NCBI RefSeq assembly: GCF_004010195.1 | Contig: NC_057719.1 | Span: forward strand, 37,118,287-37,182,286 | Direction of reading: 5' to 3' | Length of the DNA: 64,000 nt | Origin: Chiloscyllium plagiosum | Lineage: Eukaryota | In this document: positions 2,006 through 59,982 of the stretch, piece after piece | How positions within the stretch are numbered: position 1 is the stretch's first letter | Layout: every line of letters begins with the position of its first letter | The notes under the pieces: generated by a model | Told to the model about the DNA's origin: nothing | What the model saw: only the letters and a program-made list of their open reading frames with translations | Databases searched by the model: none | Made by a program: the position numbers and the translations under genes

Positions 2006-2224
2006 TGTTGTAGCATTTGTAGAGAGAAATCAGAGTTAATGTTTCGTGTTGAGTGACTGTTCCTCAGAACTCAAAACCCAGAGCCCAGTTCTGAGGAAGG
2101 GTCACTCGACCTGAAAAGTTAACTCTGATTTCTCTCTGTAGGTGCTGCTAGATCTGCTGAGCTTGTCCAGCAATTTCTATTTTTGTCTCTGATTTACAAC
2201 ATCTGCAGTTCTTTTTGGCTTTTA
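2006..2224 (+). mobile_element. Fold-back PLE-derived mini-element with hammerhead motif
   Basis: Imperfect inverted arms at ~2021-2071 and 2087-2138. Core ctgagga-agggtcactcgacct-gaaa at 2091-2116. Decayed TSD tttactcagccaag (1992-2005) / ttcactcagctaag (2225-2238). Confidence 0.7.
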
Positions 2225-3736
2225 TTCACTCAGCTAAGCCATTGTTGTCGATTTGCAAATACCTACACTTCCACTATTGATCGCTGTTGTACTCTCCTAG
2301 TTAAACCACACCATCATAAAATGTCCTGATTATTCATACTCTCTCCATTTTGTCCACTAATCAATCTCCAATCCATTCTCACATCTTTGCAAGCCTTTGC
2401 ACCTTAACTATGATTCAACAAAATACCACACAGCACTGGCTTAATAACCTTCAAGCTGAGTTGTTATTTTTGCTTCTGTTAAAGATACTTATATACATTA
2501 AAATTAGAAAAGTTACTCAAATATTCATTGGACATTTGTAACCAAATCAATCCTTGATATTTTATATAATGTAACAGCTTAACTACTCTCCCAACATGAG
2601 GCTCAAAGCAGAGTCATCAGTAGATAATATTTACATTTTCGCTAGCTACAAGATCAGGGTCTAAGGAATACTGCTGGCCATTCACTATAATATCAGCTGC
2701 CCAAAACCTTTTGGGGATTTTGAACAGGAATTTGCTTGTATCAGGCATGTGATCCAGTGCTGCATTCTCTACAAGGCAATTGGGCTGGAGAAAATTACAG
2801 AAACAGAGAGAAGTAAGGCCACTGATTTATTTGAAAAGAGTATGAGAATAAATTAAGATGTTGCTTGACTGGAGCACAGAAATAATAGAAAAATTTGACT
2901 TGCAGGTGGTCAAGAGATGAGCAGCAAGATTTTAGATGAAGGCTATTGACCTAGTGTGGGAAAGTGGGACCAGAATATGTCGTAGAATATTTTTGGTGGT
3001 ACATACCCAATATACAGAAGGGCCTCTTCTGTATTGTATGATTTTATGAATTCAGGGATACGCTAGAATATTTGAGTATGAGTGTAACAATTCACAGTAT
3101 AAAGACAACAAAGTCAGAACGAGAATTTCAGTTGCAGACAAACTGAAGGGACGAGGCTGAATTCAGGCGATATTGCGGAAGTCGAAATAGGCACAAATAC
3201 AAGGTCAGGAGTTCAAATCACGGTCAAGACTGACATCTTGAGAAGCTTAATCTCAGACTAGTGCCAGAGGAAAAGAAAAACAAAATACCACAGACGCAGA
3301 AAATTGAACTATAAACAGAAAATATTGGAAATGCTCAGCAGGTCAGCATTAACTCTTTTCCTCTCTACCTATGCTCCTAGACCTGCCAAGTGCTTCCAGC
3401 AATTTCCTAGTACTACCTTAGACTCTTAGTAATACTTATCCTCCGAGTAATACTCCCGCAATACCTTAGTACTGCCTTCTGTTTACTTATGAATAGTAAG
3501 TCATATTCAATGAATGATCTATCAGTAGGGAAATATTCATCTAACAGTGATTCAGTATATTATTAAATAGAATTAATGTTAGCTTCTAAATGTTCATCAG
3601 GCTAATTTTAATGAGTCAGAACAGAAACTGACAGCAGCAAAACTGTTGCCAGATACAAGGACAGATTAATATGTTCAACACAAACACTAGCTTAAGACTA
3701 GGTCAATATGTACCCAGAAAGAGAAAGAACTATTCT

Positions 3737-4058
3737 GGGCGACACGGTGGCTCAGTGGTTAGCACTGCTGCCTCACAGCTCCAGGGACCTGGGTTCGATT
3801 CTAGCCTCAGGTAACTGTCTGTGTGGAGTTTGCACATTCTCCCAGTGTCTGCATGGGTTTCCTCCCACAATCCAAAGATGTGCAGGTTGGTGAATTGGCC
3901 ATGACAGTATTCAAGGATATGTAGGTTAGGTGCATTAGTTAGGGGAGGTGTAGGATAACAGGGTAGAGGCAAGCATCTGGATGGGTTACTCTTTGGAGGG
4001 TCGATATGGCCTTGTTGGGCCGAAGGGCCAGTTTCCACACTGTAGGGATTCTTTGATT
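3737..4058 (+). mobile_element. HE1-type tRNA-derived V-SINE
   Basis: A box tggctcagtgg, B box ggttcgattc, V-domain ctgtgtggagtttgcacattctccc, LINE-like tail gggccgaagggccagtttccacactgtagggattct. Confidence 0.9.
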
Positions 4059-5109
4059 CTATTCTGATGAAGTAAAACAGCCATGGGTGAGGTGAGAGAT
4101 CACATAAATCCTCAGGAAATAATTTGAGTGCAAGGGATTATATAGATTCCGAGGAATAGCAGAAATATAAAGAAAAGCAAAGGAAAAATTAAAACAAAAT
4201 CTTACAGCCCACATAATGTGATGATGCAAAATTATATGCCATTGGTAGTGGTGGTGCACCTGTCTACTGACTCCTGGAAACTTAATGAATGAATGGTCAC
4301 TTAACAGCCACATTCCATTTCTGCTGAGACATTTCCCATGGGCTTGAGCTGGTTACCAGGCAGAGGAGGGTACTGATACTTTCATTCCAGAAGCAATACA
4401 GTAAAGACAACTAGTAATTTCTTTAAAGTGTCTGTCTGTGGAATTGTATTTCTATTTAAGAACATTTGAAATAACTCAGAAAGTTTACATAAAGGGATCA
4501 AGTGTACCTTTCTTGGATAATAGTAGTCTGTGTGACCTGGTGATACTTCACCTGGAAACACTACAAAATCGAATGATGCTAAGTAAAAAGCTGTGTAGTG
4601 AGCAGAAACAAAGGAGAGCCACAAACAGAGGAGCTGGACAATGAGGGAGGCCAGAACACTGATGCAAGCGTAAAAAGAAAACACGTAGGAGCAGACAGAA
4701 GAACATAGAACTCTTGTGAGAAGAAACAAATCACCCTCAAAAAGCATCTAAGTGAGCTTTCTCTTTGGCAGAAAAGGAAAAGGGGGCTCTAAGAAGTACT
4801 GAGCAAACTGGCTAAAATTATATTACATCTGGAAAGCTATGAGAGTATCTTGAAGATGCTAAGACCACAAACTGGTGTATTATTGATTGGGCACTTGAAA
4901 AACAACTGTGGAAAGCTACACAATCAGGAATATTGTGATGTGAGGGACAGTTGGTTCATAAATGTATGCCTTGTTGATATCGATTGTACCCATTAAATTC
5001 AAAATGAAATCTGTTGTTGGATAGTAGCAAGATGTGGAACATAATGTTTGACAAAAAAAGCTTAATGAATTTCTGGTTGAAGATAGGAGACTTCTAGAGT
5101 AGGTTGAAT

Positions 5110-6769: not shown

Positions 6770-6900
6770 TTTTTTTATTCATTCTTGAGACACAGGCATC
6801 ACTGACTGGGCCAGCATTTATTGCCCATCCCCAGTTGTCATTGACAAGGTGATGGTGAGCTGCATTCTTGAACTGCTGCAATCCATTTGTTATAGGGTCG
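6770..6900 (-). mobile_element. 3' tail of a LINE/SINE family ending gggcaataaatgctggcc...
   Basis: The same tail recurs at ~22890, ~26040, 35520, 40850, 45935 and 56400. Confidence 0.6.
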
Positions 6901-7012
6901 TATTCACTGCTGCTGGGTATCTAGTGACTACAAGTGTTTTCAGTATTTTGCAAATATTTCAGAAGTTTGAGCAAAGGAAGGAAAATGTTAAGGTAGGTTG
7001 AAAGACAAGCCA

Positions 7013-7217
7013 GAAAAATGTGTTGCTGGAAAAGTGCAGCAGGTCAGGCAGCATCCAAGGAGCAGGAGAATCGACATTTCGGGCATAAGCCCTGAAGAAG
7101 GGCTTATGCCCGAAACGTCGATTCTTCTGCTCCTTGGATGCTGCCTGACCTGCTGCGCTTTACCAGCAACACATTTTTCAGCTCTGATCTCCAGCATCTG
7201 CAGTCCTCACTTTCTCC
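7013..7217 (+). mobile_element. Young palindromic PLE-derived mini-element, 14-bp TSD
   Basis: TSD tgaaagacaagcca at 6999-7012 and 7218-7231. Near-perfect inverted arms ~7013-7092 and 7100-7179. Hammerhead core at the centre. Confidence 0.85.
7092..7124 (+). ncRNA. Minimal type-I hammerhead ribozyme core
   Basis: CUGAAGA-A-GGGC(UUAU)GCCC-GAAA-CG-UC with predicted cleavage after 7119. The 5' strand of helix I is largely replaced by the inverted arm. Confidence 0.65.
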
Positions 7218-8074
7218 TGAAAGACAAGCCACAAAAACTCAAAGTAAATGGATGACTAACACTGTTAAAAATGCAGTGACTTAATTAGAAAAGCTGCCAG
7301 GAAATTGCAAGCCAAACGTGAGCGATGTCACAGTCTCCCTTATCAGTTTTGTGAGAGGGAAACTAAATTCACACTATGTTGAATGATGTTGGTACTAAGG
7401 AATAAAGTTTCTGGACATACAATTAAGATATACAATTAAGAGGTATTTTCCCCATTTTAGGCACTCAAATCAATATTAAAGCTCCAAGACTAGGTTCAGC
7501 TCAGCCACACTCCCTCCTAATCTGTACCAGCAAAATGATTTCTTACTTCGAAAAGGCATCTTATATGAAACAGGTGCAACATTTTTCACTTCCCCAGCCA
7601 GTTGTTATCTTTTGGCCTTACTGAGTGAGATTGCCAATTAGTGCTAAATCTAGAGCACACTGAGCTAAGACAAATGCCCACCAGAATGTGGATAAGGACC
7701 ATCCAAAGCCATTTCAGATTTGACACTTAGTATCATCAGAAAGCTGACACTTCCATTCCATCACTCTGGGAAGGACTTGGAATTAGCTTCCAGGAAGTGT
7801 TCTCACAAATTGTAAACTGTTGCTAAGATCATACATAACCTCCAGCAAAATTTGTTTTAGTTTTAAAATGGTGAATAGCTGCATCAATAACTGATAATAT
7901 TCCAAAGCAAATACAATAATCCCAAGTTAACAAAATACTGAAAGAAGGCCAGAATTTGACTAGCTTCGGTATGGGGTACACCACTAGCATTAACCTAATT
8001 GACCCCCTATGCATTTCTAGCATTTGCACATAACTTTTATCTTATTCAAAGCATTTCCATTCTTTGTGCTTCGT

Positions 8075-9579: not shown

Positions 9580-11105
9580 ATACTATCCCAGGTAACTGAG
9601 GGAAGAAAGAGAGGAAACAGCTGGGGCCTTAATAGATACCTTTGCAGCATCTTTGAACATGAGTGAGGTCCTGGAGGACTGGAGAATCGCTAATGTTGCC
9701 CCCTTGTTTAAGAAGGGTAACAGAGATAATCCAGGTAATTATAGAAGACTGAGCCTCTCGTCAGTGGTGGGGAAGCTGCTGGAGAAGATACTGAGGGATA
9801 GGATCTATTTACATTTGGAAGAAAATGGGCTTATCAGTGATAGGCAGCATGGTTTTGCGCAGGGAGGGTCAGGTTTTACCAACAATAGAATTCTTTGAGG
9901 AAGTGACAAAGTTGATTGATGAGGGAAGGGCTGTAAAAGTAATTTCCATGGATTTCAGTAAGGTGTTTGATAAGGTTCCGCATGGTAGGCTGATGGAGAA
10001 AGTGAAGTTGCATGGGGTCCAGGGTGTACTCGCCAGATGGATAGAGAACTGGCTGGGCAGCAGGAGACAGAGAGTAATAGTGGGAGGGAGTTTCTCAAAA
10101 TGAAGAACTGTGACCAGAGGTGTTCCACAGGGATCCGTGCTGGGACCACTGGTGTTTGTGATATACATAAATGGAAGCTATAGGTGGTCTGATTAGCAAG
10201 TTTGCAGATGATATTAAGATTGGTGGAGTAGCAGATAGTGAAGGGGATTGTCAGAGAATACAGCAGAATATAGATAGATTGGGGAGTTGGGCGGAAAACT
10301 GGCAATGGAGTTCAATCCAGGCAAATGCGAGATGATATATTTTGGAAGATCCAATTCAAGAGTGAACTACATGATAAATGGAAAATCCCTGGGGAAAATT
10401 GATGTACAGAGAGATCTGGGTGTTCAGATCCATTATACCCTAAAGGTGGCAACGCAGGTCGATAGAGTGGTCAAGAAGGCATTGGCATGCTTTCCTTCAT
10501 CAGATGGGGTATTGAGTCCAAGAGTTAGCAGTTGTACAGGACTTTGGTTCAGCTATATTTGGAATACTGCATACAGCTCTGGTCGCCACATTACCAAAAG
10601 GATGTGGATGCTTTGGAGAGGGTGCAGAGGAGGTTCACCAGGATGTTGTCTGTTTTGGAGAGCACTAGCTATGAAGAGAGGTTGAGTAAATTAGGATTAT
10701 TTTCATTAGAAAGACAGAGGTTGAGGAGGGACCTGATTGAGGTCTTCAAAACCATGAGAGGTATAGACAGGGTGGATAGCAAAAAGCTTTTTTACCCCAG
10801 AGAAGGGGACTCAATTACTAAGGGGTCATGAGTTCAAGGTGAGAGGAGAAAAGTTTAAGGGACATATGCATGGAAAGTTCTTTACGTCGAGGGTAGTGGG
10901 TGCCTGGAACACGTTGCCAGTGGAAGTGGTAGAGTGGGCACGATAGTATCACTCAAGATGCATCTAGACAGATATATAAATGGGCAAAGAGCAGAGGGAT
11001 ATAGATCCTTGGAAAATAGGCGACAGGTTTAGATAGAGGATCTGGATCAGCACAGGCTTGGAGGGCTGAAAGGCCTGTTCCTGTGCTGTAATTTTCTTTG
11101 TTCTT
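9580..11105 (+). mobile_element. CR1/HER1-like LINE, 5'-truncated, frameshifted RT pseudo-ORF
   Basis: DWRIANVAPLFKKG..NPGNYR..SLSSVVGKLLE, MDFSKVFDKVPHG, GVPQGSVLGP, SKFADD (agcaagtttgcagatgat), ERVQRRFTRM, GLFSLE. Tail ctttgttcttt. Confidence 0.95.
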
Positions 11106-11550: not shown

Positions 11551-11911
11551 GGGGCAGCACAGTGGCTCAGTGGTTAGCACTGCTTCCTAACAGTGCCAGA
11601 GAACCCGGGTTTGATTCCAGCTTTGGGCGATTGTTTGTGTGGAATTTACACATTCTCCCAGTGTCTGTGTGGGTTTCCTCCAGGTGCTCCGGTTTCCTCC
11701 CACAATCCAAAGATGTGTTGGTTAGGTGAATTGGCTGGGCTAAATTGCCCGTTATGTTCAGAGATGTGTAGGTTAGGTGCATTAGTCAAGGGTAAATGTA
11801 GAGTAATAGGGTAGAGAATGGGTCTAGATAGGTTACCCTTTGGAGGGTCAGTATGGACTTGTTGGGCCAAATGGCCTGTTTCTACACTGTAGCGATTCTA
11901 TGATCTATGAT
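11551..11911 (+). mobile_element. HE1-type V-SINE, full length
   Basis: tRNA-like head, V-domain and (tctatga)n tail. Confidence 0.9.
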
Positions 11912-11934
11912 TATACTTCACTTGAGGATTTTGA

Positions 11935-12290: not shown

Positions 12291-12350
12291 TGCATGTTAC
12301 TGACAGATCTGAAAATGGCAATTTAAAGGAAAATTACATTTGCAACAAGT

Positions 12351-12450
12351 CATCCTGAAGAAGGGCCCTGCCCGAAACCTCAACTCTCTTGTTCCTCGGA
12401 TGCTATCTGACCTGCTGTGCTTTTTCCAGCACCACAGTTTATCCACTCTT
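12351..12450 (+). mobile_element. Truncated PLE pLTR fragment starting at a hammerhead core
   Basis: ctgaaga-agggccctgccc-gaaacctc followed by the ctgacctgctgtgctttttccagc tail shared with the 7013 family. Confidence 0.7.
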
Positions 12451-13568
12451 AATGAACTTGATGTCAATATATGACCAACGGGTTGCAACCAACCATGTTT
12501 CCTGACTCCTGAATGGCTGTGGGGATCAGAGACTACGTATAAAAGTGCAGCCCCATTTGTCTTCCTTTTGGTCCTCCTGACAGGGATTACTCAATGTCAA
12601 GAGCTGAAAATTCAGCCCACGTGTTCTGATCTTCCAGCAATCAATTTCATCCAAGATTTTCTGTTAAACTGATTAGAATACAGCACAGTGAGCTGAGCAA
12701 CAACTCAGAAATTGCACTAAGTCCAATGGACATCAAAGTTGCCAAGGGCAGAAAGAAAAAATAATTAACATTTCATAGGTTGTGTTCCTTTATCTTTAAG
12801 TGTTTTTAATTTTGGAGATTAGCACCTTTTTGAATTGTTTATTTAATAATTGCCCCTAAAACTCTTTGTGACTCCTACCCATACTTAATTACGGACCTCA
12901 ATATCAACAAGTTCAATAAATAGAGGCCTTGAATTTGCTTAAAACCTGTCTCACAACTTCATTTGGCACTGAAGACTTTCCTTTGTCTGTAGTGAAAATG
13001 AGAGAAATAAGATGATGATGAATATATGATTATATTCAATAGTTAACTTTGATAAAAGCAACATATTTATTGAATGGAGTTCTTTTTTTTTACTGATTTC
13101 AACTGCTCCACAACTATTTTGTAATGTTCCAAGTACCTGAGGTGATCATAATAATAACTTGATAGCAGTGATGAATTTAATGAGGACCAAAATCATGATA
13201 CTGCAAAATGACTGCAAAAGACACCCATGCCATAACTTCTTGCGACATGTGCAAAACAATAATCTAATGACATAATTGTGTCATGAATGCAGCATAACTC
13301 TTCAGCTTGTTCCAACGCATCATAATCACTACAATAAGGGACTCAGCAACATAAAAACTGTACTCTGTGGCATTTCAGCAGAGTGTGGAGTGAGGATTCA
13401 GATCTTGTATAATTGCAGTGACTTTGTTCTAAGGAACAGTATTTTTATATCTATCAGATACTTCGGAAAGTAAAGGGCGACAGACAAGAGGTTCTGTGAT
13501 TCAAATAGTCCTGAAAGATTTCTTTTTCCATTTCCTCATGGTGTGCTTCAGAAACTCTGTCTTCTTAA

Positions 13569-13773
13569 TGATTTGGAGGTGCCAGTGCTGGACTGGGGTG
13601 TACAAATCATACAACACCAGGTTATAGTCCAACAGGTTTATTTGGAAGCACTAGCTTTCAGAGCGCTGCTCTTTCATCAGGTCCTCACAATTTCCTGTTG
13701 AAGGAGCAGCACTCCAAAAGCTAGTGCCTCCAAATAAACCTGTTGGACTACAACCTGGTGTTGTGTGATTTTT
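13569..13773 (-). mobile_element. Palindromic PLE-derived mini-element (second family), 16-bp TSD
   Basis: TSD aactctgtcttcttaa at 13553-13568 and 13774-13789. Inverted arms ~13604-13681 and 13694-13771. Hammerhead cores face outward from the centre. Confidence 0.85.
13649..13683 (-). ncRNA. Minimal type-I hammerhead ribozyme motif
   Basis: Minus strand: ac-CUGAUGA-A-AGAGC(AGC)GCUCU-GAAA-GC-UA-gu, with palindromic AGCU in place of helix III. Confidence 0.7.
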
Positions 13774-14230
13774 AACTCTGTCTTCTTAACACTCATTTCC
13801 CACCATTAAACTAACATAACCTGGTAAAATATATCAAGCTTGTAAAACTTGCAAAATCCATTTAAAGAAAAATGAGTTGAAAGCATCCTAAGTCCCTTGA
13901 AAATTGACCCCAGAATTCGGCTGCTCTCTTTGAGGATTTAAGGCCATATTTTCATTATATACATTGTATAATGAAGCTCTAATCCTTATCAGCATTGCAC
14001 AAAATCATTGAAGGATAGGCAGAAGGGAGAATGTAATCCAGCTTGTCATCCCTGTCCTGATTCTTTGAAAGAATTGGTCCCATTCCCTTATTTTTGCTCA
14101 CAGTTGAAAACTTCTTCCAAATGTAACCAAGTGCTAAGATGCACCAGTTAAAAGGTCAGCCTTGTGTTCCTGTGTCTTTTTTTCCCTAGTTAGTTATTTT
14201 CAGTTTAGGCCTTTTAGCCTTCACCCCCTT

Positions 14231-16239: not shown

Positions 16240-17180
16240 TAGAGTCATAGAGATGTCCAGCATGAAAACAGACCCTTCGGTCCAACTCGTCCATGCTGAC
16301 CAGATATCCCAACCCAGTCTAGTCCTACCTGCCAGCACCCGGTCCATATCCCTCCAAACCCTTCCTATTCATATACCCATCCAAATGCCTCTTAAATGTT
16401 GCAATTGAACCAGCCTCCACCACTTTCTCTAGCAGCTCATTCCATACACGTACCACCCTCTGTGTGAAAAAGTTGCCCTTTAAGTCTCTTTTATATCTTT
16501 CTCCTCTCACTCTAAACCTATGCCCTCTAGTTCTGAAATCCTCCACCCCAGGGAAAAGACTTTGTCTATTTACCCTATCCATACCCCTCATGATTTTGTA
16601 AACCTCTAAAAGGTCATCCCTCAGCCTCTGACACACCATGGAAAACACTCCCAGCCCGTTCAGCCTCTCCCTATAGCTCACATTCTCCAACCCTGGCAAC
16701 ACCCTTGAAAAATCTTTTCTAAAGCCTTTCCAGTTTCACAACATCTTTCTGATAGGAAGGTGACCGGAATTGCACGCAATATTCCAACAGTGGCCTAACC
16801 AATGTCCTGTACAGCTGCAACATGACCTCCCAACTCCTGTACTCAATACTCTCGCCAATAAAGGAAAGCATACCAAATGCCTTCTTCACTATCCTATCTA
16901 CCTGTGACTCCATTTTCAAGGAGCTATGAACCTGCACTCCAAGGTCTCTTTGTTCAGCAACATTCCCGAGGACCTTACCATTTTAAGTGCATAAGTCCTG
17001 CTAAGATTTGCTTTTCCAAAATACAGCACCTCACATTTATCTAAATTAAACTTGATCTGCCACTTCTTAGCCCATTGGCCCATCTAATCAAGATCCTGTT
17101 GTAATCTGAGATAACTTTCTTCGCCACCCACTACAATTTTGGAGTCATGTGCAAACTTATTAACTATACCTCTTATGCTC
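16240..17180 (-). mobile_element. Young HER1/CR1 LINE 3' fragment
   Basis: ORFs 16325 and 16719 (LYRTLVRPLLEYCVQF, GNFFTQRVVRVWNEL, FKRHLDGYM). Tail ctatgactcta. Closely similar to 42389-43070. Confidence 0.95.
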
Positions 17181-20315: not shown

Positions 20316-20655
20316 GAGAGCTATAGAGATGTACAGCATAGAAACAGACCCTTCGATTCAACTCATCCATGTCGATTAGATATCCTAAACTGATCTCGTC
20401 CCATTTTGCCAGCACTTGTCTCATATCCCGATAAACCCTTCCTATTCACATGCCAATTCAAATGCCTTTTAAATGTTACATTGTATCAGCCTCTACCAAT
20501 TCCTCTGGCAGTTCATTCCATACACAAACCACCCTGTTTGTGAAAAATATGCCCCTTATGCCCCTTTTAAATCTTTCCCGTTTCATCTTAAATGTATGCC
20601 CTCTAATTTTGGAGTCCCATATCCTGGGTAAAAGAACTTGGCTATCCACCCTATT
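20316..20655 (-). mobile_element. HER1/CR1 3' end
   Basis: Homologous to 16240-16580. Confidence 0.85.
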
Positions 20656-21000: not shown

Positions 21001-22869
21001 ACAGGACCCTATTCTAAGCAAGCATATATTGTACATTTTTATTGAGAAAGGGTTATGGAGACGACTGACATTTTTTTTGCTGCATTCCCCATGGCAACAC
21101 CTTGACTAATCAGAGTCTACCTACCTGGTCTGCAGTTGATCCGTTAGCTAAGATTGACAACTAACAGATCCTGCTGCAACTCCATGCAAACCAATCAACA
21201 ACAGTGTCTTGGTGTGTAATTGTGTGCCCTTTCAAAATTTGGTTTTGTGCATCTGAGACCTGATTAGTTCAAGGCAGTACAGCTTCAACTTCATGTCTCT
21301 TTTTAGCGACATTTAGATTCTATTCTACCAACCAATTACTAATGGCTAGTTGTTCTGCAAAAAAGCTATGATTTGATACCTTCCGGATAATGCCAACAGA
21401 AAATTTCTTACTGGAAGAGAGAGTTAGTTCAGCATTTTGTTGGAAGTTATTAGTCTGAAAGGTTCTTACAAAATCACAGATGCCATTTTAAAAATTTGAG
21501 TTGTAAATCTTAGTCGTCACTTTTGTAGCAAGTCAGTCAAGTCTATGACGTGCTGCTGACAGCCAGATAACATACAGTGGCGGACAACCCAAACATGTGA
21601 AAATGTTATCTAATCAATTTTCCATGTTCATAATAACCAGCAAAATAACCCCTTTTCTGTACTGATACTGAATTAGTCACAGAGCTTTGTGCTACACTTT
21701 TTCTTTAGTAAAAGCATTGAAGCTACTTTAGGTCAACAAACTCGCTGTTACAGTCTTAATTCCCAAGCCACAAGGTTTTTCACAAAACAAGTCATCAAGC
21801 TAATGCTTTCTTTTTTTCACAATCACATTAACTCAATAAGTTGAAATGCTAATTTACTGTGATTTACATTGAGCAATATTAAACATTGCTAAAAAAAAGA
21901 TATCAAAGCTTTTTATCTTACACTCATCAGAACTAGGATGGAAGAAACAGATTTGGAAAACAATGAGCAACAAACAAATTACTTGCTCCTTGCATATTCT
22001 GGAAGAAAGAACAGAAATACAATAAATAAAAAGAAATTGGAAATGATGAAGATGATAAATAAATATTTGCAGACTTCAGAATGCACAAAGCTTTTTATTC
22101 TTCTTAGGTACATGTGACTACAGTAAATCAAATCAAAGCAAATATGTCATCAGATGAAAATAGAGAAGATCGCTGAATATTTCAGAGGAACAGTCTCCAC
22201 AGAAACCTTAGCCTACTCGTGGATATGCTGGCTAAATCCCTTCAGGTTGCTATATCACAATTTTCTTTTACATTCAATTGTCTACAGAGAATAAATGGAA
22301 AAGATGAACTGGAGAAGACAAACTGGTCCTTTGATTTTGTCCTATTCAGCCTTAATGCAACTGGACAAGACAATCACAATGCTTCACATACCCTCCAGGA
22401 CAGGCAAAAAAAAAACCTAGACTTTAAGAAAACTCTCAACCAATTACAGGGAAAAGAATCACAAGAAATTACTCACCATTACCTTTGGTAAGTGAAAATG
22501 AAATCCTTGAGATAACAATAACCACATTATCCTACAGATTTCTTGTACACAAGATAAGAAATACCTCCAGGATGGTTGCATGAAGTTATTTTGTGACTCA
22601 TGAACTATGGAAATAAACAGCTACATTCCATACCTGAATCTACGTTAGCTGATGTTTTTTAGGTAAAATCTGTGTGAAGCATAAACAGTCTAACAGTCCA
22701 TCAAGAAAACTGAGTTGCAGGTACAAGTTTGGACAAGGAAAGGAAGAATGAATAAAATTTACACTAAGCCTAAACCTGCCCCAAGACAGTGACAATTTCT
22801 GAAATTATATTAAGTTATATTATATTATGTTAATTGTTAGAAAATATAATATGACTCTGTATTATTTCA

Positions 22870-26659: not shown

Positions 26660-26930
26660 GGTGGAACAAATTACTACAGATGTTGGAATCTGTACCAAAA
26701 ACAACAAATGCTGGCGATCACAGTGGGCCAGGCAGCATATGTAGAGAGAGAGCAAGCTAATGTTTCCAGTCTAGATGATTCTTCATCAGAGCTGAATTGG
26801 CGGGGAGGGGACAGCTTTTATTGTTGGGGGATGGGATTGAGTGTAGAGCGCTGGCAGAGGAAGGATGTTGTTAGTTCAGATTAAGTAATCGGAATATGAG
26901 AATGGTAGAACAATGGTGTGTCTACCTGAC
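26660..26930 (-). mobile_element. PLE pLTR fragment with hammerhead motif
   Basis: Minus strand agct-CUGAUGA-agaatcatctagactg-GAAA-CA-UU-agct at 26755-26793, with a 4-bp helix I. Confidence 0.6.
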
Positions 26931-27465
26931 ATACTGGAAAGAAAAGGCTGGAGGCTGGAAGAACACAGTAAGCCAGGAGGCAACAGGAGGTGGAGAAGTC
27001 AACGTTTCGGGTGTAACGCTTCTGCAAGATTGGGGATGGATTTGGAGGGAGCTGCAGATAAAGGGGATGGCGGGGGCAGGGTGGTGAAGTGGGGATAAGT
27101 GAAGACAGGTAGAGGGTACAACCTGGTTGGTCAATAGGAGGAATGAATCCGGTAGATGCAGGGAGGAGTGGAAGGGATGGGGAGGGGCTGGGGAGGGAGG
27201 CTATTCGAAATTGGAGAACTCAATGTTGAGTCCTCCAGGCTATAGGGTGCCTAGGCGGAAGATAAGTTGTTGTTCCTCCAATAGGAGCAGTGGTTTGTTT
27301 CAGCAAAAGAGGAAGCCAAGGATAGTCATGTTGGAAAGGAAGTGTTGGGGGAATTTAAATGGCCGGTGACTGGGAGGTCCGGTTGGCTCTTGCAGACCCG
27401 GCTGTGATGCTCAGTGAGCCTTTCCCGGAGTTTACTTTGGTCTCCCCAGTGTAGAGACAAGCCGA
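26931..27465 (-). mobile_element. Penelope-like element 3' part (GIY-YIG remnant plus pLTR)
   Basis: LYTGETK (YIG half of GIY-YIG) in ORF 27355. Decayed hammerhead gcgttacacccgaaacgttgac at ~26998-27030. Confidence 0.75.
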
Positions 27466-31704: not shown

Positions 31705-31765
31705 ATTCCTGATGAAGGGCTTTTGCCTGAAATATCGATTTTCCTGTTCCTAGGGTGCTGCCTGT
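31705..31765 (+). mobile_element. Hammerhead-bearing PLE fragment inserted in a SINE/LINE tail
   Basis: attc-CUGAUGA-A-GGGC(UUUU)GCCU-GAAA-UA-UC-gatt at 31705-31740. Confidence 0.65.
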
Positions 31766-32464
31766 CATTGCTGGCTAAGCCAGCATTCATTGTCTATCCA
31801 TAAGGTGATTTGTGCAATAAGATCCCTGAACAGGATGATTAAATATCTACCCTGAGGAACTCTTGCCGAGATATTCTGGAGCTGAAATGACTAACCTCAA
31901 ACTGCGACACCACCTTCCTTTTTGGTAGGTATGATTCCCCCCAACCCGGCTCCCATTGGCCCCTGCTTTACTAGAGCTTCTTGCTGTATACTTTGTCAAA
32001 TGTGGCCTGGATGTTAAGGGCAGTCACTCTCACTTCCCTCTGGAATCCAGCTCTTTTATCCATGTTGGACTAAGGTTGTAATGAGGTCAGGATTTGGGTA
32101 TCCTGGGCGAAACTGGAACTGAACAATGAGGAAAGATTTTAGCCTCCTGTTTTGCACCAAAATGCTGGGCCCTCCATCCTTGAGGATGGAGGAGTTAGTG
32201 GAAGTTCCTCCTTCAGTAATTGTCAGCTACCATTAACAATTGGATGTAGCAGGACTACAGACTTTAGATCTTATCTGTTGGTTGTGCAATCACATGGCTG
32301 TATCTACCCCTTGCTGTTTATGGTGTTTGGCATGAAAGTAGTCCTGTTTTATCATTCCGCAGATTAACACCTCATTTTTCGGTAGTCCTGGTGCTGCTCC
32401 TCGCATGCCCTTCTGCACTGTCCGTTGAATCAGGGTTGATCCCGTTGCTTGATAGCATCTCTTG

Positions 32465-33512
32465 TGGTGGTAAGGCAAAATGCCTGGAGTGGAGGGTGGA
32501 GTGGTGATGGACCTAATGATAGAGTCGCGGAGGGAATGGTCTCTGCAGAATGCTGAAAGATGCGCTGGATCTCCTCCGCTTCCTGCATCTCCACCCTTGT
32601 ACCCCACCTGATCCTCACCTTCCACTCCACCAATCTCCCGATAAAATGAATCATCCTCCGCCATTTCCACTAATTACAATCAGACTCCACCACCAGAGAT
32701 ATTTCCCTCCCTATCCCTTTCAACATTCCGTAAAGACCATTTCCTCCGCTAGTCCCTCATTAAAAACATGTCTCCATCAACCCACCCTCAATTCCCAGCA
32801 CTTTCTCCTGCCACCACAAGAGGTGTAAAACCTGCACCAACGCCTCCCCCCTCACCTCCATCCAATGCCCTAAAGGATCCTTCCACATCCAGCAGAGATT
32901 TTCCTGCACATCCAAATACCTCATCAACTGTGACCATTACTCTCTACATGGTCTAATCTAACGGGGGAGACAGGACACCAACTTGCAAAACTTTTCAGAG
33001 AACTTATCCAGTACACATGCACTAAACAACCCCACCGCCCTGTAGCCGACAACTTCAACTCATCCTCCCACTCCGCCAAGAACATGCAAATCCTGGGCCT
33101 CCTCTACCACCAAATCCTGGCCATCTAACGACTACTAGAAGAGCACGTCACCTTCCACCTTGGGACCCTCCAACTACACAGAATCAATGTCAATTTCACC
33201 AGTTTCATTGCCATTGCCATTTATCCCAGATCCAACCCTCCAATTTGGCACCATCCTCTTGAGCAGTCCTATCTGTCCATCATCCTTCCCACCTATCCAT
33301 TCCACCCTCTGCTCCGACCTATCACCATCATCTCCCACCTTCATCTACCTATCACATTCCCCCAATCCCATTCCCCCTCCCATTTATCTCTCAGCCCCTT
33401 TAGAATCTCCCCCTACAGTCCTGATGAAGAGCTTATGCTTGAAACGTCGTCTCTCCTGCTCCTCAGATGCTCCCTGACTGGCTATGCTTTTCCAGCGCCA
33501 CACTTTTTGACA
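32465..33512 (+). mobile_element. Penelope-like element 3' part with short 5' inversion
   Basis: GIY-YIG remnant TSKYLINC..SLHGLI..GETGHQLAKLFRE at ~32907-33003. 32470-32545 is an inverted homolog of 32690-32830. pLTR with hammerhead at 33417-33452. Confidence 0.8.
33417..33452 (+). ncRNA. Minimal type-I hammerhead ribozyme motif at the PLE 3' end
   Basis: agtc-CUGAUGA-A-GAGC(UUAU)GCUU-GAAA-CG-UC-gtct, with one mismatch in helix I. Confidence 0.7.
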
Positions 33513-40305: not shown

Positions 40306-40778
40306 GTGAGGCCGCAGTGCTAACCACTGTGCCACCCGGGGCGGCACGGTGGCACAGTGGTTAGCACTGCGGCCTCACAGCGCCAAAGACCCGGGTTCAA
40401 TTCCTGCCTCAGGCAGATGCTGTGTGGAGTTTGCACATTCTCCCCGTGTCTGCGTGGGTTTCCTCCGGGTGCTCCGGTTTCCTCCCACAATCCAAAAATG
40501 TGCAGGTTAGGTGAATTGGCCATGCTAAATTGTCCATAGTGGAGGAGAAAGTGAGGTCTGCAGATGCTGGAGATCAGAGCTGGAAATGTGTTGCTGGAAA
40601 AGCGCAGCAGGTCAGGCAGCATCCAGGGAACAGGAGAATCGACGTTTCGGGCATAAGCCCTTCTTCACTATGTGAAGTAAATTGTCCATAGTGTTAGGTG
40701 AAGGGGTAAATGTAGGGAATGGGTCTGGGTGGACTTGTTAAGCCGAAGGGCCTGTTTCCACACTGTAATCTAATCTAA
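40306..40778 (+). mobile_element. HE1-type SINE with 5' fold-back duplication and nested insertion
   Basis: Head at 40339, intact V-domain, (aatct)n tail. Inverted copy at 40306-40336. Insert at 40542-40677. Confidence 0.92.
40542..40677 (-). mobile_element. 7013-family PLE mini-element, 16-bp TSD, nested in HE1
   Basis: TSD taaattgtccatagtg at 40526-40541 and 40678-40693. Truncated at (C)UGAAGA of the hammerhead. Confidence 0.9.
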
Positions 40779-42388: not shown

Positions 42389-43876
42389 CAGAGTCATAGA
42401 GATGTACAGCATGGAAACAGACCCTTCAGTCCAACCTGTTCACGCTGACCAGATATCCCAACCCATCTATTCCCACCTGCCAGCACCCGGCCCATATGCC
42501 TCCAAACCCTTCCTATTCATATACTCATCCAAATGCCTCTTAAATGTTGCAATTATACCAGCCTCCACCACATCCTCTGGCAGCTCATTCCATGCACATA
42601 CCACCCTCTGCATGAAAAAGTTGCCCCGAGGTCTCTTTTATATCTTTCCTCTCTCACTCTAAACCTATGCCCTCTAGTTCTGGATCCCCCGATCCCAGGG
42701 AAAAGACCAATCCATGCCCCTCATAATTTTGTAAACCTCCATAAGGTCCCAGTCTCCGACGCCCCAGGGAAAACAGTCCCAGCCTGTTCAGCCTCTCCCT
42801 GTAGCTCAAATCCTCCAACTCTGACAACATCCTTGTAAATCTTTTCTGAACCCTTCCAAGTTTCACAACATCTTTCCGATAGGAAGGAGACCAGAATTGC
42901 ACGCAATACTCCAACAGCGGCCTAACCAATGTCCTGTACAGCCGCAACATGACCTCCCAACTCCTGTACTCAATACTCTGACCAATAAAGGAAAGCATAC
43001 CAAACGCCTTCTTCACTATCCTATCTACCTGCGACTCCACTTTCAAGGAGCTATGAACCTGCACTCCAAGNNNNNNNNNNNNNNNNNNNNNNNNNNNNNN
43101 NNNNNNNNNNNNNNNNNNNNNNNNNNNNNNNNNNNNNNNNNNNNNNNNNNNNNNNNNNNNNNNNNNNNNNNNNNNNNNNNNNNNNNNNNNNNNNNNNNNN
43201 NNNNNNNNNNNNNNNNNNNNNNNNNNNNNNNNNNNNNNNNNNNNNNNNNNNNNNNNNNNNNNNNNNNNNNNNNNNNNNNNNNNNNNNNNNNNNNNNNNNN
43301 NNNNNNNNNNNNNNNNNNNNNNNNNNNNNNNNNNNNNNNNNNNNNNNNNNNNNNNNNNNNNNNNNNNNNNNNNNNNNNNNNNNNNNNNNNNNNNNNNNNN
43401 NNNNNNNNNNNNNNNNNNNNNNNNNNNNNNNNNNNNNNNNNNNNNNNNNNNNNNNNNNNNNNNNNNNNNNNNNNNNNNNNNNNNNNNNNNNNNNNNNNNN
43501 NNNNNNNNNNNNNNNNNNNNNNNNNNNNNNNNNNNNNNNNNNNNNNNNNNNNNNNNNNNNNNNNNNNNNNNNNNNNNNNNNNNNNNNNNNNNNNNNNNNN
43601 NNNNNNNACCTCACCTGTGACTATTGATGATACAAATATCTCTGCAAGAGGCCCAGCAATCACTTCTCTAACTTCTCACAGAGTTCTCGAGTACACCCGA
43701 TCAGGTCCTGTGGATTTATCCACCTTTAACCATTTCAAGACATCCAGCACTTTCTCCTCTGTAATCTGAACATTTTGCAAGATGTCACCATCTATTTCCC
43801 TAAGTCTAAATCTTCCATATCCTTTTCCACAGTAAATACAGATGCAAAATATTCATTTAGTATCTCCCCCATTTTG
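42389..43876 (-). mobile_element. Young HER1/CR1 LINE spanning an assembly gap
   Basis: ORF 42654 LYRTLVRPLLEYCVQFWSPSYRKDVVKL. After the gap, VDKSTGPDRVYSRTL and EVIAGPLAEIFVSS. Confidence 0.92.
43071..43607. other. Assembly gap (537 N)
   Basis: Run of n. Confidence 1.
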
Positions 43877-46150: not shown

Positions 46151-47020
46151 CGTAAGAGTGATCATAATAACTGTACATTCAATTAGATGGTAAGAAACTT
46201 GGATCTGAAACTAGCATCTGAAATAAAGGGTGAACAGAGATGGCTAAAGTAGACTGGGAAAATAGATTAAAAGATCAGATATAGCAGACAATTTTTGAGA
46301 GTATTCATAACTCTCATTAAGGTACCTTTCATTTAGAAACAGTCATCACAAGGATGCACCATCCTTCACTAAGTAAGTTAAAGATGGTATCATATTGAGA
46401 TGTCATCTCTGCAAAGCAAGTGGTCAAATTAATTAACATACATTGCAAGATTAGATTGATATTTTGAAGTTTAGTACTTCAGACTTTAAGTACAGTTTAC
46501 CCAACTATAATAATATTGTTGAATAAATGGATGCATTTCTAGATGACATGTAATATTAAATATCTAAATTAGGATTGAGAAGTTGATTGCTAATGACTGA
46601 CTACATGGTCTAAATATAACTTTGGGATTGCCTAATGTACACTGTTTGTGTACATTAATTCTCATGCAATCATTTGAACAATTGTTTTTATTGAATGTCT
46701 CAAGTAAAAATAATTTTGCATTTATACATCACGTCATTCACATCCTCAGAACATTTCAACACACTTTAAAACTGATGGATGTACTTGATGTACAGTCATT
46801 GTTCATTCAGGGAATAACCCTGACTAAAACACAAGTAAAACCAATGTTTTTCTTTGACTTGTGCCAGTGGATTCTTTGCAACACTTGAATGGACACACAG
46901 GGCACTTCATTATTTTTGTGGCAATCCAGACTGTGTACTCATTATGAAGTGGGTCTTGAACTGACAACCTCCTGACCCAGTAGTTTGAGAGTTTCAGCAA
47001 ATATGCTAATTTGGAAACAA

Positions 47021-47239
47021 GGAGAAAGTGAGGACTGCAGATGCTGGAGATCGGAGCTGAAAATGTGTTGCTGGAAAAGCACAGCAGGTCAGGCAGCATC
47101 CAAGGAGCAGGAGAATCGACGTTTCGGGCATGAGCCCTTCTTCAGGACTCATGCCCGAAGGGCTCATGCCAGAAACATCGATTCTCCTGCTCCTTGGATG
47201 CTGCCTGACCTGCGGCGCTTTTCCAGCAACACATTTTCA
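47021..47239 (-). mobile_element. Palindromic 7013-family PLE mini-element, 13-bp or longer TSD
   Basis: TSD gctaatttggaaa at 47005-47017 and 47240-47252. Arms ~47055-47140 and 47157-47242. Confidence 0.88.
47113..47150 (-). ncRNA. Best-preserved minimal hammerhead ribozyme
   Basis: GAGUC-CUGAAGA-A-GGGC(UCAU)GCCC-GAAA-CG-UC^GAUUC: 5-bp helix I (one GU pair), 4-bp helix II, ACGU palindrome. Confidence 0.75.
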
Positions 47240-47708
47240 GCTAATTTGGAAATCAAGTCCATGTTTACTAACAATAATCATCCTTTTGGTGAATAGTTTT
47301 GCAATGTACACTTCTTTTGTTTTTAATTAATGTATTTCCATTATAAACTCATTTTCTGTCGACTGTGAGGTACTTCTGTGAAATATCCTCCTGCACTATT
47401 GTCAGTTTACAAAGCTAAAATATTATACTTATGAGTAATCCAAGATATCTGAATAATACTAAAACACATAATCACAAATAATAATATATTTATTCTGGTA
47501 TTTCTACATCACACCAACAGATGGTAATACCAGATAACATTTGCTCGTTAACTATTCTAACTATTTCAGCTTAGCTTTAACTCACACCACAGTAGATCTT
47601 ATCTTCGGTCAGATATGTGGTTTCTAATGACCTTTTATTCAATAATAATAACAATTAGTATTTAAACAGCATTTTTAACACTACAAAATGTTCCAAGCTA
47701 TCAATTTT

Positions 47709-48737
47709 TGAGAAGATTTGTAGTTCAGGTTTATGATAAGTACGTAAGTTAGTTTGCTAAGCTGGAAGATTTTGTTTTCAGACATTTAGTCAGCATACTA
47801 GGTAACATCATCAGTGAGAGTCTCCTGTGAAGCACTGGTGGTATGTCCCGCCTCTATTTATAGGCCTTAGAATAAAGAACAAAGAAAATTTACAGCCCAG
47901 GAACAGCCCCTTCAGCTCTCCAAGCCTGAGCCGATCCAAATGTACTGTCTAAACCTGTCACCCAATTCCTAAGCATCTGATTCCCTCTGCTCCCCACCTA
48001 TTCATGCATCCGTCCAGATGCACCTTAAATGAAGCTACTGTGCCTGCCTCTACCACCTCTGCTGGCAATGCGTTCCAGATGCCCATACCCTCTGTGTGAA
48101 GTACTTGCCTCACGTATGCCCCTTAAACTTTCCACCTCTCACCTTGAATGCCTGACCCCTCATTATTGATTTCTTGGTTTCTTAAGGTGGGTCATGTGTT
48201 TTTTTTAAGGCAAGGTAGATCGGGTCTAAATCAATGTGTTTATTGATGGAGTTCTAATTAGAATGCCATGCCTCTAAGAATTCTCATGTGTGTCTTTGTT
48301 TCACCTGTCCGAGCATGTGTCCCAGTTAAAGTGATGTCCTTCTTTGTCTGTGTGTATGGAAACTTAGTGATAGTGGGTTGTGTCTTTTGGTGGCTAGTTG
48401 GTGTTCATGTATCCTGGTGGCAAGTTTCTTGCTTGTTTGAACAGCGACTAATGAAACTAAAGAATCCATTAAAGTACTGCCATTAAATCTAACATCATTT
48501 ACAAGATACCATGCAAGAACTGTAAAAAGCACTACATTGGACAAACAAGCAGGAATCTTGCCACCAAGATACACGAAAAAAAACACAGAAATGATATCAC
48601 CCACCTTAAGAAACCAAGACCTATAAATAGAGAGGTGGGGCATACCACCAGTGCTTCACTGGAGACTCTCACCTGATATTACCTGGTATAGTGATGAAAC
48701 ATCTGAAAACAAATCTTCCAGCTCAGCGAGCTAACTT
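47709..48737. mobile_element. Inverted (two-arm) Penelope-like element with GIY-YIG remnants
   Basis: + strand IIYKIPCKNCKKHYIGQTSRNLATKIHE at ~48494-48577. - strand QTSKKLATRIHEHQLATKRH (ORF 48326). Inverted pLTRs at 47750-47870 and 48600-48737. Confidence 0.9.
47868..48168 (-). mobile_element. CR1 3' end nested in the PLE pLTR
   Basis: Reverse complement of the 10830-11105 tail (aaagaacaaagaaaatttacagcccaggaacag). Confidence 0.85.
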
Positions 48738-53464: not shown

Positions 53465-53630
53465 CTAGAGCAAAATACTGTGAACATTGGAAACCTGAAT
53501 CAAACAGAATGCTGCAGAAACACGGCAAGTCTGAGTTTAAACTGTATTCTGAAGAAGAACTCAAAACGTGACTGTTGTTTCTCTCTCCACAGACACTACC
53601 AGATTTGCTGAGTTTCTCTAGCATTCTTTA
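53465..53630. mobile_element. Decayed fold-back PLE pLTR fragment
   Basis: ctgaagaagaactcaaaacgtg core remnant, with tail-like arms on both sides. Confidence 0.5.
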
Positions 53631-57250: not shown

Positions 57251-57533
57251 GTGTAGATATAACTGGTTCCCCCAACCCAAATACACCCCCACACTCCAAT
57301 CCATTATCTAACTCACCCATTCAATAACTAATTCACTAGCCCACTTTCATTCATTAAAACACTTGAGACTTTCAGATATTTAAACTCTATACAGCAGGTA
57401 CTGTGTAAGAAGGGAGTATGTCTGCTCCCCACCCTGACTCTCCCACAATTACTGATCTTAAGCAAGAAAGGATTCACTCGTCCATTTTTATATTTCGGAC
57501 AGAATTTGAAAACGGTTCAGAAAACTTCACTGG

Positions 57534-57845
57534 TAGATTAGATTAGGTTCCCTACAATGTGGAAACAGGCCCTTCAGCCCAACCATTCCACACCGACCCT
57601 CCAAAGAGTAACCCATCCAGACCCATTTCCCTCTGACTAATGCACTTAACACTATGGGCAATTTAGCACGGCCAATTCACCTGACCTGCACATCTTTGGA
57701 CTGTGGGAGGAAACCAGAGCACCCAGAGGATACCCATGCAGACTCCGGGAGAATGTGCAAACTCCACACAGACAGTCACCCGAGGCTGTAATTGAACCTG
57801 GGACCCTGGTGCTGTGAGGCAGCAGTGCTAACCACTGACCGCCCT
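57534..57845 (-). mobile_element. HE1-type V-SINE
   Basis: Reverse complement of head, V-domain and (aatct)n tail. Confidence 0.9.
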
Positions 57846-59888
57846 AGTGGTGGGTAGTGGCAACGAGGTGACAATTGCTGCTGACCAGAAGATCAGCACC
57901 ATTATTTTCATACTGGGGACTTAGCTTATGATAAAATTAATTCATGGAAACTGGTGAATCTGGAACTGAAACAGACAGTTAAAATGGAAATGAATGTGTT
58001 TGTGGGAAGAGGGCATTAACAATTACAGGAAATAAGTGACTAGTTAGTTTGGCTCTTAATGCTGCAAGACTACCTCCAATCTCCAGGAGTCTTGTCAATT
58101 GCATTAGGAATTTTCCGGAGCTATTCCCTGAATAACCACAAACTTTTCTTTTCTACATTTGGCTCTCTGAACAGAAAGCATTGTTGAGAACATGAGGATA
58201 GTGAATATGGCCACACCTTTCATTAGTCCTCTTTTGCTTGTATGTTGACACTACACAAACTAGCAATAATCATATTTCTACTCCTACCTTGAGCAAATTT
58301 CACACCCTCTGTAACTGCTTTCCACAAACAAAAATTCTGACTATAAAACCCTTTGAGATATTTCAAGGTCACAAAGCCCTGATGATACAAATTTGTTATT
58401 TTTCTTTCTAGACAAATTCGCCAATTATCAACAACAGTATTTGAAGTATAATATTACAGCTACAATGAAAAGTTGAATGTCATTTTACATGGCAAGACAT
58501 TACATTGAATAAATGACTTAACGGAAAGAATATAAAGCAAGAAATAAGAACAGGCCGTTCAATCCATCTGTAGTGTTCCTAGCTACAGTCATTGTCCAGG
58601 GACAATCTAGATAACTATGGACAAAACTATAATTACTTTATCTCCCTTTGAAAAGTTCCACAATTGCTGTGGTACTTTGCTGTGAATATCTCAGAAATGT
58701 GGCTGCCAGGGGGATCAGGGCTGGGAACTGAGTATCCAAGGAAACACATACTATTAAGAGGACAGGCAGATAGCAAAGAGGTGTGCTTACCTTATTAGTA
58801 AGAAGTGAAATTAAATCAATAGCAAGAAGCAATATAGCGTCAGAAGGCATAGAATCTGCGTGGGTAGACTTGAGGAACTCCAAAGGTAAAATAGGGAAGA
58901 AATTCAGTCAGGAGATAGAATTGGCATGTAACAAAGGCAGTATTACAATATCATGGGGGACTTCAATGTAGTCTGGGAAATCAAGTTGTTAGTCGATGTC
59001 AAGAAAAGGAATTTGTGAAATGTCTATGAGAGGTTTTATTTGAAGCAGCTTGTAGTATAGCCCACTAGGGAACAGGCAATTCTCAGTTTAGTGATGTGTA
59101 ATGTGGCACACTTGATTAGGAAACTGAAAGTGAAGGAACGTTTAGGGACCAGTGATCATAATATGATAGAATTCATCCTGCAGTTTGAGAGGGAGATGAT
59201 TGAATCAGATGTAACAATATTACAATTAAGTAAAAGTATCTACAAAGACATGGGGAAGGAGCTGGCCAGAGCTGACTGGAAGAGAGCCTAGCAGGGAAGA
59301 CATTGGCACTGTAGCAGCAGGAATCTCTGGGGTAATTTGGGAGGCAGAGCAGAAATTCAACCAATGGGAGAAGAAACAAGCTAAGGGAGAAGAAGGCAAC
59401 TATAGCTGATAAGGGGAATTAGGGACAGCATAAAAAAACAAAAGAAAAAAACATACAGTGGGAAGCCAGAGGATTTGGAAGCCTTTAAAAACCTGCAGAG
59501 GTTAACAAAAAGACAAAAAAATTGGGAGGAAGTGAAATATGATGGTACGCTAGCTTGTAATATAAAAGAAGATTGCAAGAATTTTTTAAATATCTAAAAG
59601 ATAAGAGAGAGGCAAGAATCAACATTAAACCACTGAAAAATGAGGCTGGAGAAATTATAATAGAACACAAAGAAATAGTGGAGATTTTGTAGAAGAACTG
59701 AATGAGTACTTTATATAAATCTTTACACTGAAAGATACAAGCAACATTCCAGAACTTCAGAGAGTCAGGGGCAGAGGTAAATGCAGTGGCCATCACAAAG
59801 GAGAAGATGCTGGGGAAGCTGAAAGGTCTGGGGTGGATAAATCAACCAGACCCCACAGTTCTAAAGGATAGCTGAAAGGATTGTGAAG

Positions 59889-59982
59889 TAGACAAGCAGG
59901 AGGCTGGAAGAGCACAGCAAGCCAGGCAGCATCGGGGGTTGGAGAAGTCGTCGTTTTGGGTGTAACCCTTCTTCAGGACTGG
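59889..59982 (-). mobile_element. PLE pLTR mini-insertion in CR1
   Basis: Minus strand agtc-CUGAAGA-A-GGGU(UAC)ACCC-AAAA-CG-AC-gact. The core is mutated at two positions. Confidence 0.7.

Follow-up and report, generated by a model that had tools for sequence, protein, structure and literature searches.

The window analysed here is a stretch of 64,000 nucleotides from Chiloscyllium plagiosum (genome size 3.56 Gb; contig NC_057719.1, positions 37,118,287 to 37,182,286 of the forward strand), in which short repeats carry minimal type-I hammerhead ribozyme (HHR) motifs. Judged from their sequence, these repeats are stubs of the pseudo-long terminal repeats (pLTRs) of several families of endonuclease-bearing (EN+) Penelope-like elements (PLEs), a kind of retroelement and a motif that are both already known. 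An initial annotation of the window had proposed about ten minimal HHRs from several unrelated families, and CUGANGA boxes were confirmed at all 11 positions that it listed, with C3 located exactly at 2091+, 7092+, 12355+, 13680-, 26789-, 31709+, 33421+, 47145-, 47814-, 59976- and 21930-. Ten of these are true minimal type-I motifs, whereas 21930- is a chance match: G12 and helix II are both missing, and a 584 kb genome sample contained no homologue. A descriptor comprising the core, GAAA and a helix II of at least 4 bp matched the window 8 times, compared with a mean of 0.37 and a maximum of 2 in 30 dinucleotide shuffles; an Rfam scan of the window returned no family at gathering score, hammerhead families included. 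The helix I and helix II pairings originally quoted were all found in the sequence, although the 5-bp length of one of them, gaguc/gauuc in helix I of 47145-, is an accident of the junction, as the family sequence begins at UC and GAG is contributed by the inverted arm.

Sites were sorted into families A to F by self-comparison of the window and by their sequence contexts. Families A, B, C and D share a downstream pLTR and only E and F are separate; there are three pLTR lineages rather than many unrelated ones. Copies at 40667-, 27032- and 48664+, together with inverted arms and fragments, all decayed or truncated, were absent from the earlier list. When completeness was scored in five parts (core, G10.1-C11.1, palindromic helix III, NUH, and a helix I of at least 2 bp), 47145- was the only one of the 11 sites to pass. 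The ten motifs are real, yet nearly all are broken or folded shut:

2021..2230 (+): family B PLE pLTR stub with an inverted arm, self-inverted at 2021-2137
2087-2124 (+): HHR relic of this stub (site 2091+), with G.U at 10.1-11.1 and non-palindromic AAGU
7013..7217 (+): head-to-head insertion of family A, its inverted arm short and its sense arm long
7092-7123 (+): HHR of this insertion (site 7092+), core intact, 5′ strand of helix I gone, helix I down to 1 bp
6999-7012 and 7218-7231: 14-bp target-site duplication of the 7013..7217 insertion
12351..12440 (+): family A solo stub (site 12355+), HHR relic with ACCU and without helix I
13569..13773 (-): head-to-head insertion of family E, one arm long and the other short
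13648-13683 (-): HHR of this insertion (site 13680-), with AGCU, and A-U instead of G10.1-C11.1
13774-13789 and 13553-13568: 16-bp duplication of the 13569..13773 insertion
21901..21932 (-): chance CUGAUGA match (21930-), neither hammerhead nor repeat
26700..26793 (-): family C stub (site 26789-), HHR relic 26755-26793 with ACAU and a broken helix II, predicted absent (P 0.0)
26947..27042 (-): decayed family D stub (site 27032-), core box lost, a copy absent from the earlier list
31705..31785 (+): family A (TTTT subfamily) solo stub (site 31709+), near-complete HHR 31705-31740 with G.U at 10.1-11.1, AUAU and a 2-bp helix I
32608..33506 (+): 5′-truncated family A2 PLE with linker/GIY-YIG remnant, 3′ untranslated region (UTR) and pLTR; HHR relic 33417-33452 (family A site 33421+), helix I down to 1 bp
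32608-33173 (+): broken linker and GIY-YIG remnant of this PLE (tblastn E 1e-13 to 3e-23)
40543..40667 (-): family A solo stub (site 40667-) starting at +6, C3 lost, inside another short repeat
40678-40693 and 40526-40541: 16-bp duplication of the 40543..40667 stub
47020..47242 (-): family A head-to-head insertion (site 47145-), complete HHR 47114-47150
47240-47252 and 47005-47017: exact 13-bp duplication of the 47020..47242 insertion
47746..47868 (-): family F stub (site 47814-), HHR relic 47778-47817 with U at G12
48616-48737 (+): second, decayed family F copy (site 48664+)
59887..59991 (-): family D stub (site 59976-), HHR relic 59946-59980 with A replacing both G12 and U16.1

The motif at 31705-31740 is the only one to combine a full core, a palindrome and a 2-bp helix I with a helix II that is predicted to form in context (P 0.96-0.98). 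The complete motif at 47114-47150 is predicted to be fully sequestered by the fold-back of its insertion (P of helix II 0.0; minimum free energy -204 kcal/mol), and inside this native fold-back no cleavage is predicted. At the centre of this fold-back (47143-47165) lies a nested small hairpin, and the helix II sequence occurs three times, which implies an extra template switch at this junction.

Element families, covariation and decay

The proposed link to PLE pseudo-LTRs holds. Reverse transcriptase (RT) or GIY-YIG remnants lie near copies of families A, B, D, E and F, and the presence of PLE coding remnants upstream of sampled copies identifies the sites as pLTRs of EN+ PLEs; family C is tied to PLEs only through the shared pLTR. 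Upstream, relatives of 33421+ run into an interrupted reading frame that encodes a CxxC linker and GIY-YIG, and at another locus (L022) a GIY-YIG domain (PF01541) scoring above cut-off lies beside a family A pLTR. At three of the four loci fetched, a PLE RT frame with YIDD precedes the family E pLTR, with an assembly gap between the two (RVT_1 E 3e-8 at L273); this RT is closest to proteins from sharks, and RVT_1 and GIY-YIG stand together in one frame in many of its relatives, which are 740-770 amino acids long. A family B copy (L227) lies downstream of a GIY-YIG C-terminal remnant, a family D copy (L054) downstream of an endonuclease C-terminal remnant, and two family F copies (L064, L207) follow a Penelope/Poseidon-like GIY-YIG remnant (weak Pfam match, E 0.044). 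The clade names Neptune-like (A-D) and Penelope/Poseidon-like (F) are provisional and taken from the linker: CxxxxCxxC is visible in family A remnants and was not seen before the family F endonuclease. A Pfam GIY-YIG search of the genome gave one weak match and was uninformative, a PDB sequence search with the family E RT gave no match, and when 69 of the 90 frames in the window with at least 85 amino acids were scanned with Pfam, only RT fragments and one weak sub-threshold match were detected, placing no host gene.

In order to compare the ribozymes between families, copies were assigned by their downstream repeat, the helices were then read off, and modal pairs were counted without an R-scape statistic, with families C, D and F represented by 5, 3 and 12 copies. 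The minimal type-I architecture (CUGANGA, GAAA and NUH in order, with helix II) is the modal state in families A, B, C, E and F; in family D, G12 is present in one of three copies. The helix covariation that had been proposed was recovered, with modal pairs changing on both sides in helices I, II and III, the Watson-Crick types numbering three at pairs 1 and 2 of helix I and four at pair 4 of helix II. Pair 2.1-1.1 is C-G in A, D and E, U-A in B and C, and A-U in F; pair 10.4-11.4 is C-G in A, U-A in B, C and D, G-C in E, and A-U in F; and pair 15.2-16.2 is C-G in A and F as against G-C in E. The G10.1-C11.1 pair is modal in A, B and E and level in F with G.U, its CpG decay product. The palindrome 15.1-16.1 is ACGU in A and F and AGCU in E, whereas B, C and D mostly have what CpG decay makes of ACGU. 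Across families the helix pairs switch while the core and the inserted base are retained, the single base inserted between A9 and 10.1 being A in 95-98% of A and E and U in 92% of F. This covariation between families is the mark of selection on active source lineages.

Copies within a family depart from its modal state through CpG decay at C11.1-G12, C15.2-G16.2 and C17-G1.1. Analysis of 37 of 38 read-through copies showed differences at 13 of 370 catalytic non-CpG positions (3.5%), at 30 of 222 CpG positions (13.5%) and at 18 of 259 non-ribozyme positions (6.9%; Fisher p 0.06), the last figure becoming 8 of 222 (3.6%) when one probable subfamily site is left out. Inserted copies appear to decay neutrally, with no sign of selection at the low power of this comparison, and the ribozyme, as read from these alignments, is conserved between families and decaying in inserted copies.

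Two features of the sequence ahead of the hammerhead were also seen. A pyrimidine tract and CAG resembling a 3′ splice site stand directly before helix I in families B, C and D (2087, 26793, 59980) and at 33417, and in D. virilis an intron end is described as falling at helix I's 5′ end (PMC4209133). Family F has a conserved, TATA-box-like TATAAATAG about 40 nt before the hammerhead (47830-47868; L064, L071), unlike families A-E.

Genomic load and known systems

One exact 32-letter pattern of family A occurs 48,693 times in the genome, and its reversed control not at all. A family-blind descriptor was applied to 160 pieces of 10 kb at round positions on large contigs (1,529,156 called bases) and found 66 complete motifs, with none in five shuffles, corresponding to 43 complete motifs per Mb or, if the sample is typical, ~153,000 genome-wide (95% interval 119,000-195,000). 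Natural complete motifs include those of a CCTGT subfamily, whose helix I has 4 bp, of a TTAT subfamily and of family E. The very large load anticipated by the initial annotation is borne out, but not its rate of one motif per 6 kb, as complete motifs occur about once per 23 kb; relics in any state are denser, with 177 in the first 584 kb of the sample. Motif counts overstate the ribozyme load because CpG decay or enclosure in a long hairpin affects most copies, and the long-hairpin copies are more likely to be sources of double-stranded RNA than ribozymes. Published counts of minimal HHRs are given as ~4,000 per genome in coelacanth and ~9,000 in Xenopus (PMC4209133), and 126,247 type-I HHRs are given for the axolotl (PMC7229834), with a genome of 28 Gb (bioRxiv 10.64898/2026.07.22.740005); the ~43 complete motifs per Mb found here are set beside these with descriptors that differ between studies. 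The literature searched, in which supplements and, for the count, most subscription papers were not included, held no shark hammerhead count and no description of hammerheads with Penelope in sharks or of PLEs in shark genomes.

The motifs resemble the minimal HHRs of PLEs, as far as published accounts (including those cited in PMC6765202) describe them, in their core boxes, the inserted base A9/10.1, G10.1-C11.1, a palindromic 15.2-16.2 without loop 3 and a short helix I, and also in forming several covarying families per genome, mostly as solo copies, with close opposite-strand pairs; they differ in number and density and in the 4-5 bp helix II of families A-E. The EN+ PLEs compared were Penelope (Drosophila virilis), Pen2a (Adineta vaga) and PAc/Poseidon (Anolis), as portrayed in the accessible text of PMC2377424, PMC3846280, PMC8557442 and PMC11167929. 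Shared with these are the RT with a C-terminal GIY-YIG, 5′ truncation, partial tandems, an inverted 5′ pLTR, an optional one-sided tail of 30-40 nt, target-site duplication and an initiator-like pLTR sequence. The duplications are mostly 13-17 bp here versus 8-10 bp in Adineta, most shark copies, unlike those elements, are 90-230-bp stubs of the 5′ UTR, and neither the strict pairing of a long with a short arm nor an extra G at the 5′ edge of the HHR, both presented below, is among the features described there. Non-LTR retrozymes, reported in one chondrichthyan, are likewise short non-coding PLE-related units with type-I hammerheads, but are depicted as tandem arrays of mostly canonical HHRs (PMC7229834; bioRxiv 10.64898/2026.07.22.740005), whereas the window units are solo or head-to-head with target-site duplications. 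No retrozyme array was found in the window, and elsewhere only two- or three-unit partial tandems.

Insertion junctions and the copying route

Junctions were numbered with +1 at the A of CATTCCTGA, which places C3 at +5 and the predicted cut at +32/+33. The 3′ ends of family A fall at +87..+100 in 20 of 48 copies and at +126..+136 in 28 of 48, and these two fixed ends about 35 nt apart, found in families A and E, correspond to the known one-sided tail. Head-to-head pairs consist of one long and one short arm in 26 of 27 cases in family A (p ~2e-7) and in 21 of 21 in family E (p ~5e-7), where one pair (L264, 246 bp apart) may combine two insertions that arose independently; the 27 family A pairs were found among 184 copies, and a duplication, mostly of 13-17 bp, was detectable in 16 of them. 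We infer that priming of two DNA ends at two starts is the simplest explanation of this strict pairing.

For the 5′ ends, a junction table was built against 35 references, in which 141 young copies were retained from the 184 after exclusion of 35 under 90% identity and 8 ending at +50 or beyond, with 3 rows classed as read-through. The chance of a 5′ end per base was 0.062 at +1..+11 and 0.063 at -8..-1, as compared to 0.0068 at +12..+49 and 0.0038 at -119..-9, so that ends are approximately 10 times likelier per base at the 5′ edge of the HHR (-8..+11) than on either side. Genome-wide, exact matches to ATTCCTGAAGAAGGGCTYATGCC were preceded at -1 by C (31,365 cases), G (7,390), A (3,395) or T (1,347). 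None of 30 G-copies continued into the element UTR, all being junctions, whereas most of 30 C-copies continued. The extra G was templated by neither the target nor the inverted arm in at least six copies (L110, L112, L124, L125, L127, L131), and no continuation was found by script for the remaining G copies inspected. Splicing was rejected as its source, as family A has no AG before ATTCC.

These junctions are probably explained by copying of the stubs from the capped, uncleaved front end of PLE RNA, with an HHR that is conserved between families and decays in the copies. Transcription would start at the A of the initiator-like TCATTCC, four bases before C3, and the hammerhead would be the first 36 nt of the element messenger RNA (mRNA); TCATTCC fits the initiator consensus YYANWYY. 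The endonuclease would nick both strands ~13-17 bp apart, and reverse transcription would be primed at +130 from one end of the DNA and at +95 from the opposite end and run to or near the cap, leaving the extra G, after which the complementary DNA (cDNA) products would be joined to the target or to each other via microhomology. Priming within the 3′ repeat would account for the longer 5′-truncated elements. The hammerhead would have no substrate but the RNA of its own element, acting as two copies in cis and probably with the element protein, and its cleavage would lie off the route to most insertions. In published accounts, the anole PLE protein is described as cleaving and extending both strands from two adjacent internal starts on unprocessed RNA, with an HHR dispensable for insertion in vitro (PMC11167929), an extra G at the 5′ junctions of full-length L1 is ascribed to the cap (PMC11702581), and Penelope is credited with an internal promoter (PMC2377424). 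A broader reading has, taken as a whole, an even chance of being correct: the ~150,000 complete motifs make the hammerhead load of this genome one of the densest yet recorded, the mRNA starts from helix I, a dimeric RT-endonuclease primes the two cut DNA ends at two different fixed sites on capped, uncleaved RNA, and the HHR serves as a decapping or template-limiting switch instead of a processing step. If this is true, solo pLTRs, one-sided tails and head-to-head repeats all follow from two-site priming, as strong-stop-like cDNAs, and the insertions preserve the PLE mechanism as it operated in vivo.

Several observations weigh against copying from capped, uncleaved RNA. The target itself supplies G or GAT in five or six copies (L109, L114/115, L118, L120, L121), so that nick-site preference could contribute to the extra G, and microhomology with the inverted arm or fold-back accounts for it in at least four (L105, L108, L113, L132). 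The pile-up of ends is broad (-8 to +11), with only 13 of 141 exactly at +1, and of seven non-fold-back +1 ends in the unbiased sample only two have G; simple insertions defined by target-site duplications numbered 11 in that sample, too few for a test of the extra G. R2 is described as adding untemplated G and T without a cap (PMC13000458). No intact full-length element or single intact open reading frame (ORF) was recovered, the four long frames fetched all being broken by assembly gaps. Poly(A) reads matched a family A copy in either orientation and their ends did not cluster, in a fragmented library from a differently coded organism; this result is uninformative on start or cut sites, and a second run gave no matching reads. 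Finally, the cut site (+33) is the exact position of 5 of the 141 ends, more than the local background, and a few percent of templates may accordingly be cleaved RNA. A cut-site junction pattern had 230 matches as opposed to 56 four bases further on (+37); 62 of the first 100 cut-site matches listed were CAG|GA fold-back microhomologies, so cleaved templates are at most a small minority.

It is unlikely that the ends can instead be attributed to stalling of the RT at the hammerhead fold followed by self-priming, with the tail arising from endonuclease resolution and the G from terminal-transferase noise or target preference. The breadth of the pile-up across the motif, the 49 fold-backs among 112 junctions near the motif and the target-supplied GAT of several copies are consistent with stalling, and published accounts interpret palindromes at inverted junctions as self-priming (PMC3846280) and attribute the tail to EN-mediated resolution (PMC8557442). 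However, ends are rare in helices II and III (+12..+32), where stalling is expected, and drop again beyond -8; G makes up 61% of the non-C bases at -1, against ~25% expected from composition; one pair (L055) has both arms reaching +1 with G; and the ends of both arms fall at two sites that resemble the RT start sites determined for the anole protein. Considerably less probable is a route by tandem HHR cleavage, circularisation and rolling-circle reverse transcription, the model set out in PMC4209133. The conserved core and the covariation imply selection for cleavage in active lineages, and the small excess of ends at the cut site and the existence of ~204-bp partial tandems agree with this route, but a circle has neither an end at +1 nor a cap, the 7,390 G-ATTCC junctions far exceed the 230 at the cut site even though the latter pattern admits ~1/6 of random flanks, the tandem junctions start at G-ATTCC, and cleavage is reported to be dispensable in vitro (PMC11167929).

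The initial annotation had also suggested that the dispersed motifs cleave host intronic or read-through RNA as trans-dimers; that they do so to a degree mattering to the host is very improbable, and the claim was left unsupported. In its favour are the ~150,000 complete motifs, mostly of one family with an identical ACGU palindrome, and the occurrence of family reads in both directions in one poly(A) RNA run. Against it, catalytic bases show neither excess nor deficit of change, as in neutral decay, the commonest subfamilies have a 2-bp helix I with a U.U mismatch, and the 4-bp helix III duplex is predicted at only -1.7 to -2.5 kcal/mol. Of the 66 complete motifs, 17 lie in fold-backs predicted to abolish helix II, and at sites 2091, 7092, 13680 and 47145, all in head-to-head insertions, the probability of helix II falls to 0.0 with 150-nt flanks. 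Complete motifs were paired on the same strand in no more than 3 of the 160 10-kb pieces. Published accounts describe monomers as inactive and dimers as weakly active (PMC4209133), the anole HHR as cleaving only with the element protein (PMC11167929), and 8 of 9 Xenopus dimers as failing to cleave (bioRxiv 10.64898/2026.07.22.740005). A host function of the stubs was rejected, and the genomic stubs are, we infer, inert passengers.

The role of the hammerhead in PLEs and the origin of their tails and inverted pLTRs are called unclear in passages of PMC8557442 and PMC11167929. With tens of thousands of young, near-identical stubs, junction statistics separate a cleaved-circle from a capped-linear twin-priming model, and the exact positions concerned are +1, +33, +95 and +130. 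No description of an untemplated G or cap in PLEs, or of twin priming by PLEs, was found in a literature search that did not extend to supplements and most subscription papers.

Tandem arrangements of two kinds were observed outside the window. Recurrent ~204-bp partial tandems (L084-L103, e.g. L085, L091, L094) have a third fixed end near +205, at the ORF start, joined to G-ATTCC, which suggests template jumping after the RNA 5′ end and a possible seed of retrozyme-like units. An array of ~47-bp units, each starting at the predicted family A cut site (six matches), lies at G000:C16:42817618-42817933.

Other repeats in the window

Decayed RT frames (RVT_1) are present at 9596-10100 and 37543-37842, within repeats that also occur at 16241-17107, 20317-20654, 42390-43070 and 60982-61569; these are probably remnants of long interspersed elements. 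The segment 43071-43607 is an assembly gap of 537 N, and the long frames listed as spanning it are therefore artefacts. Short repeats of ~330 bp with A-box/B-box-like ends, found at 40338-40778, 11551-11908, 3737-4062, 57539-57838 and 62732-63066, probably constitute a tRNA-derived short interspersed element, which may be the one named HE1. The family A stub at 40543-40667 is inserted in one of its copies (40338-40778).

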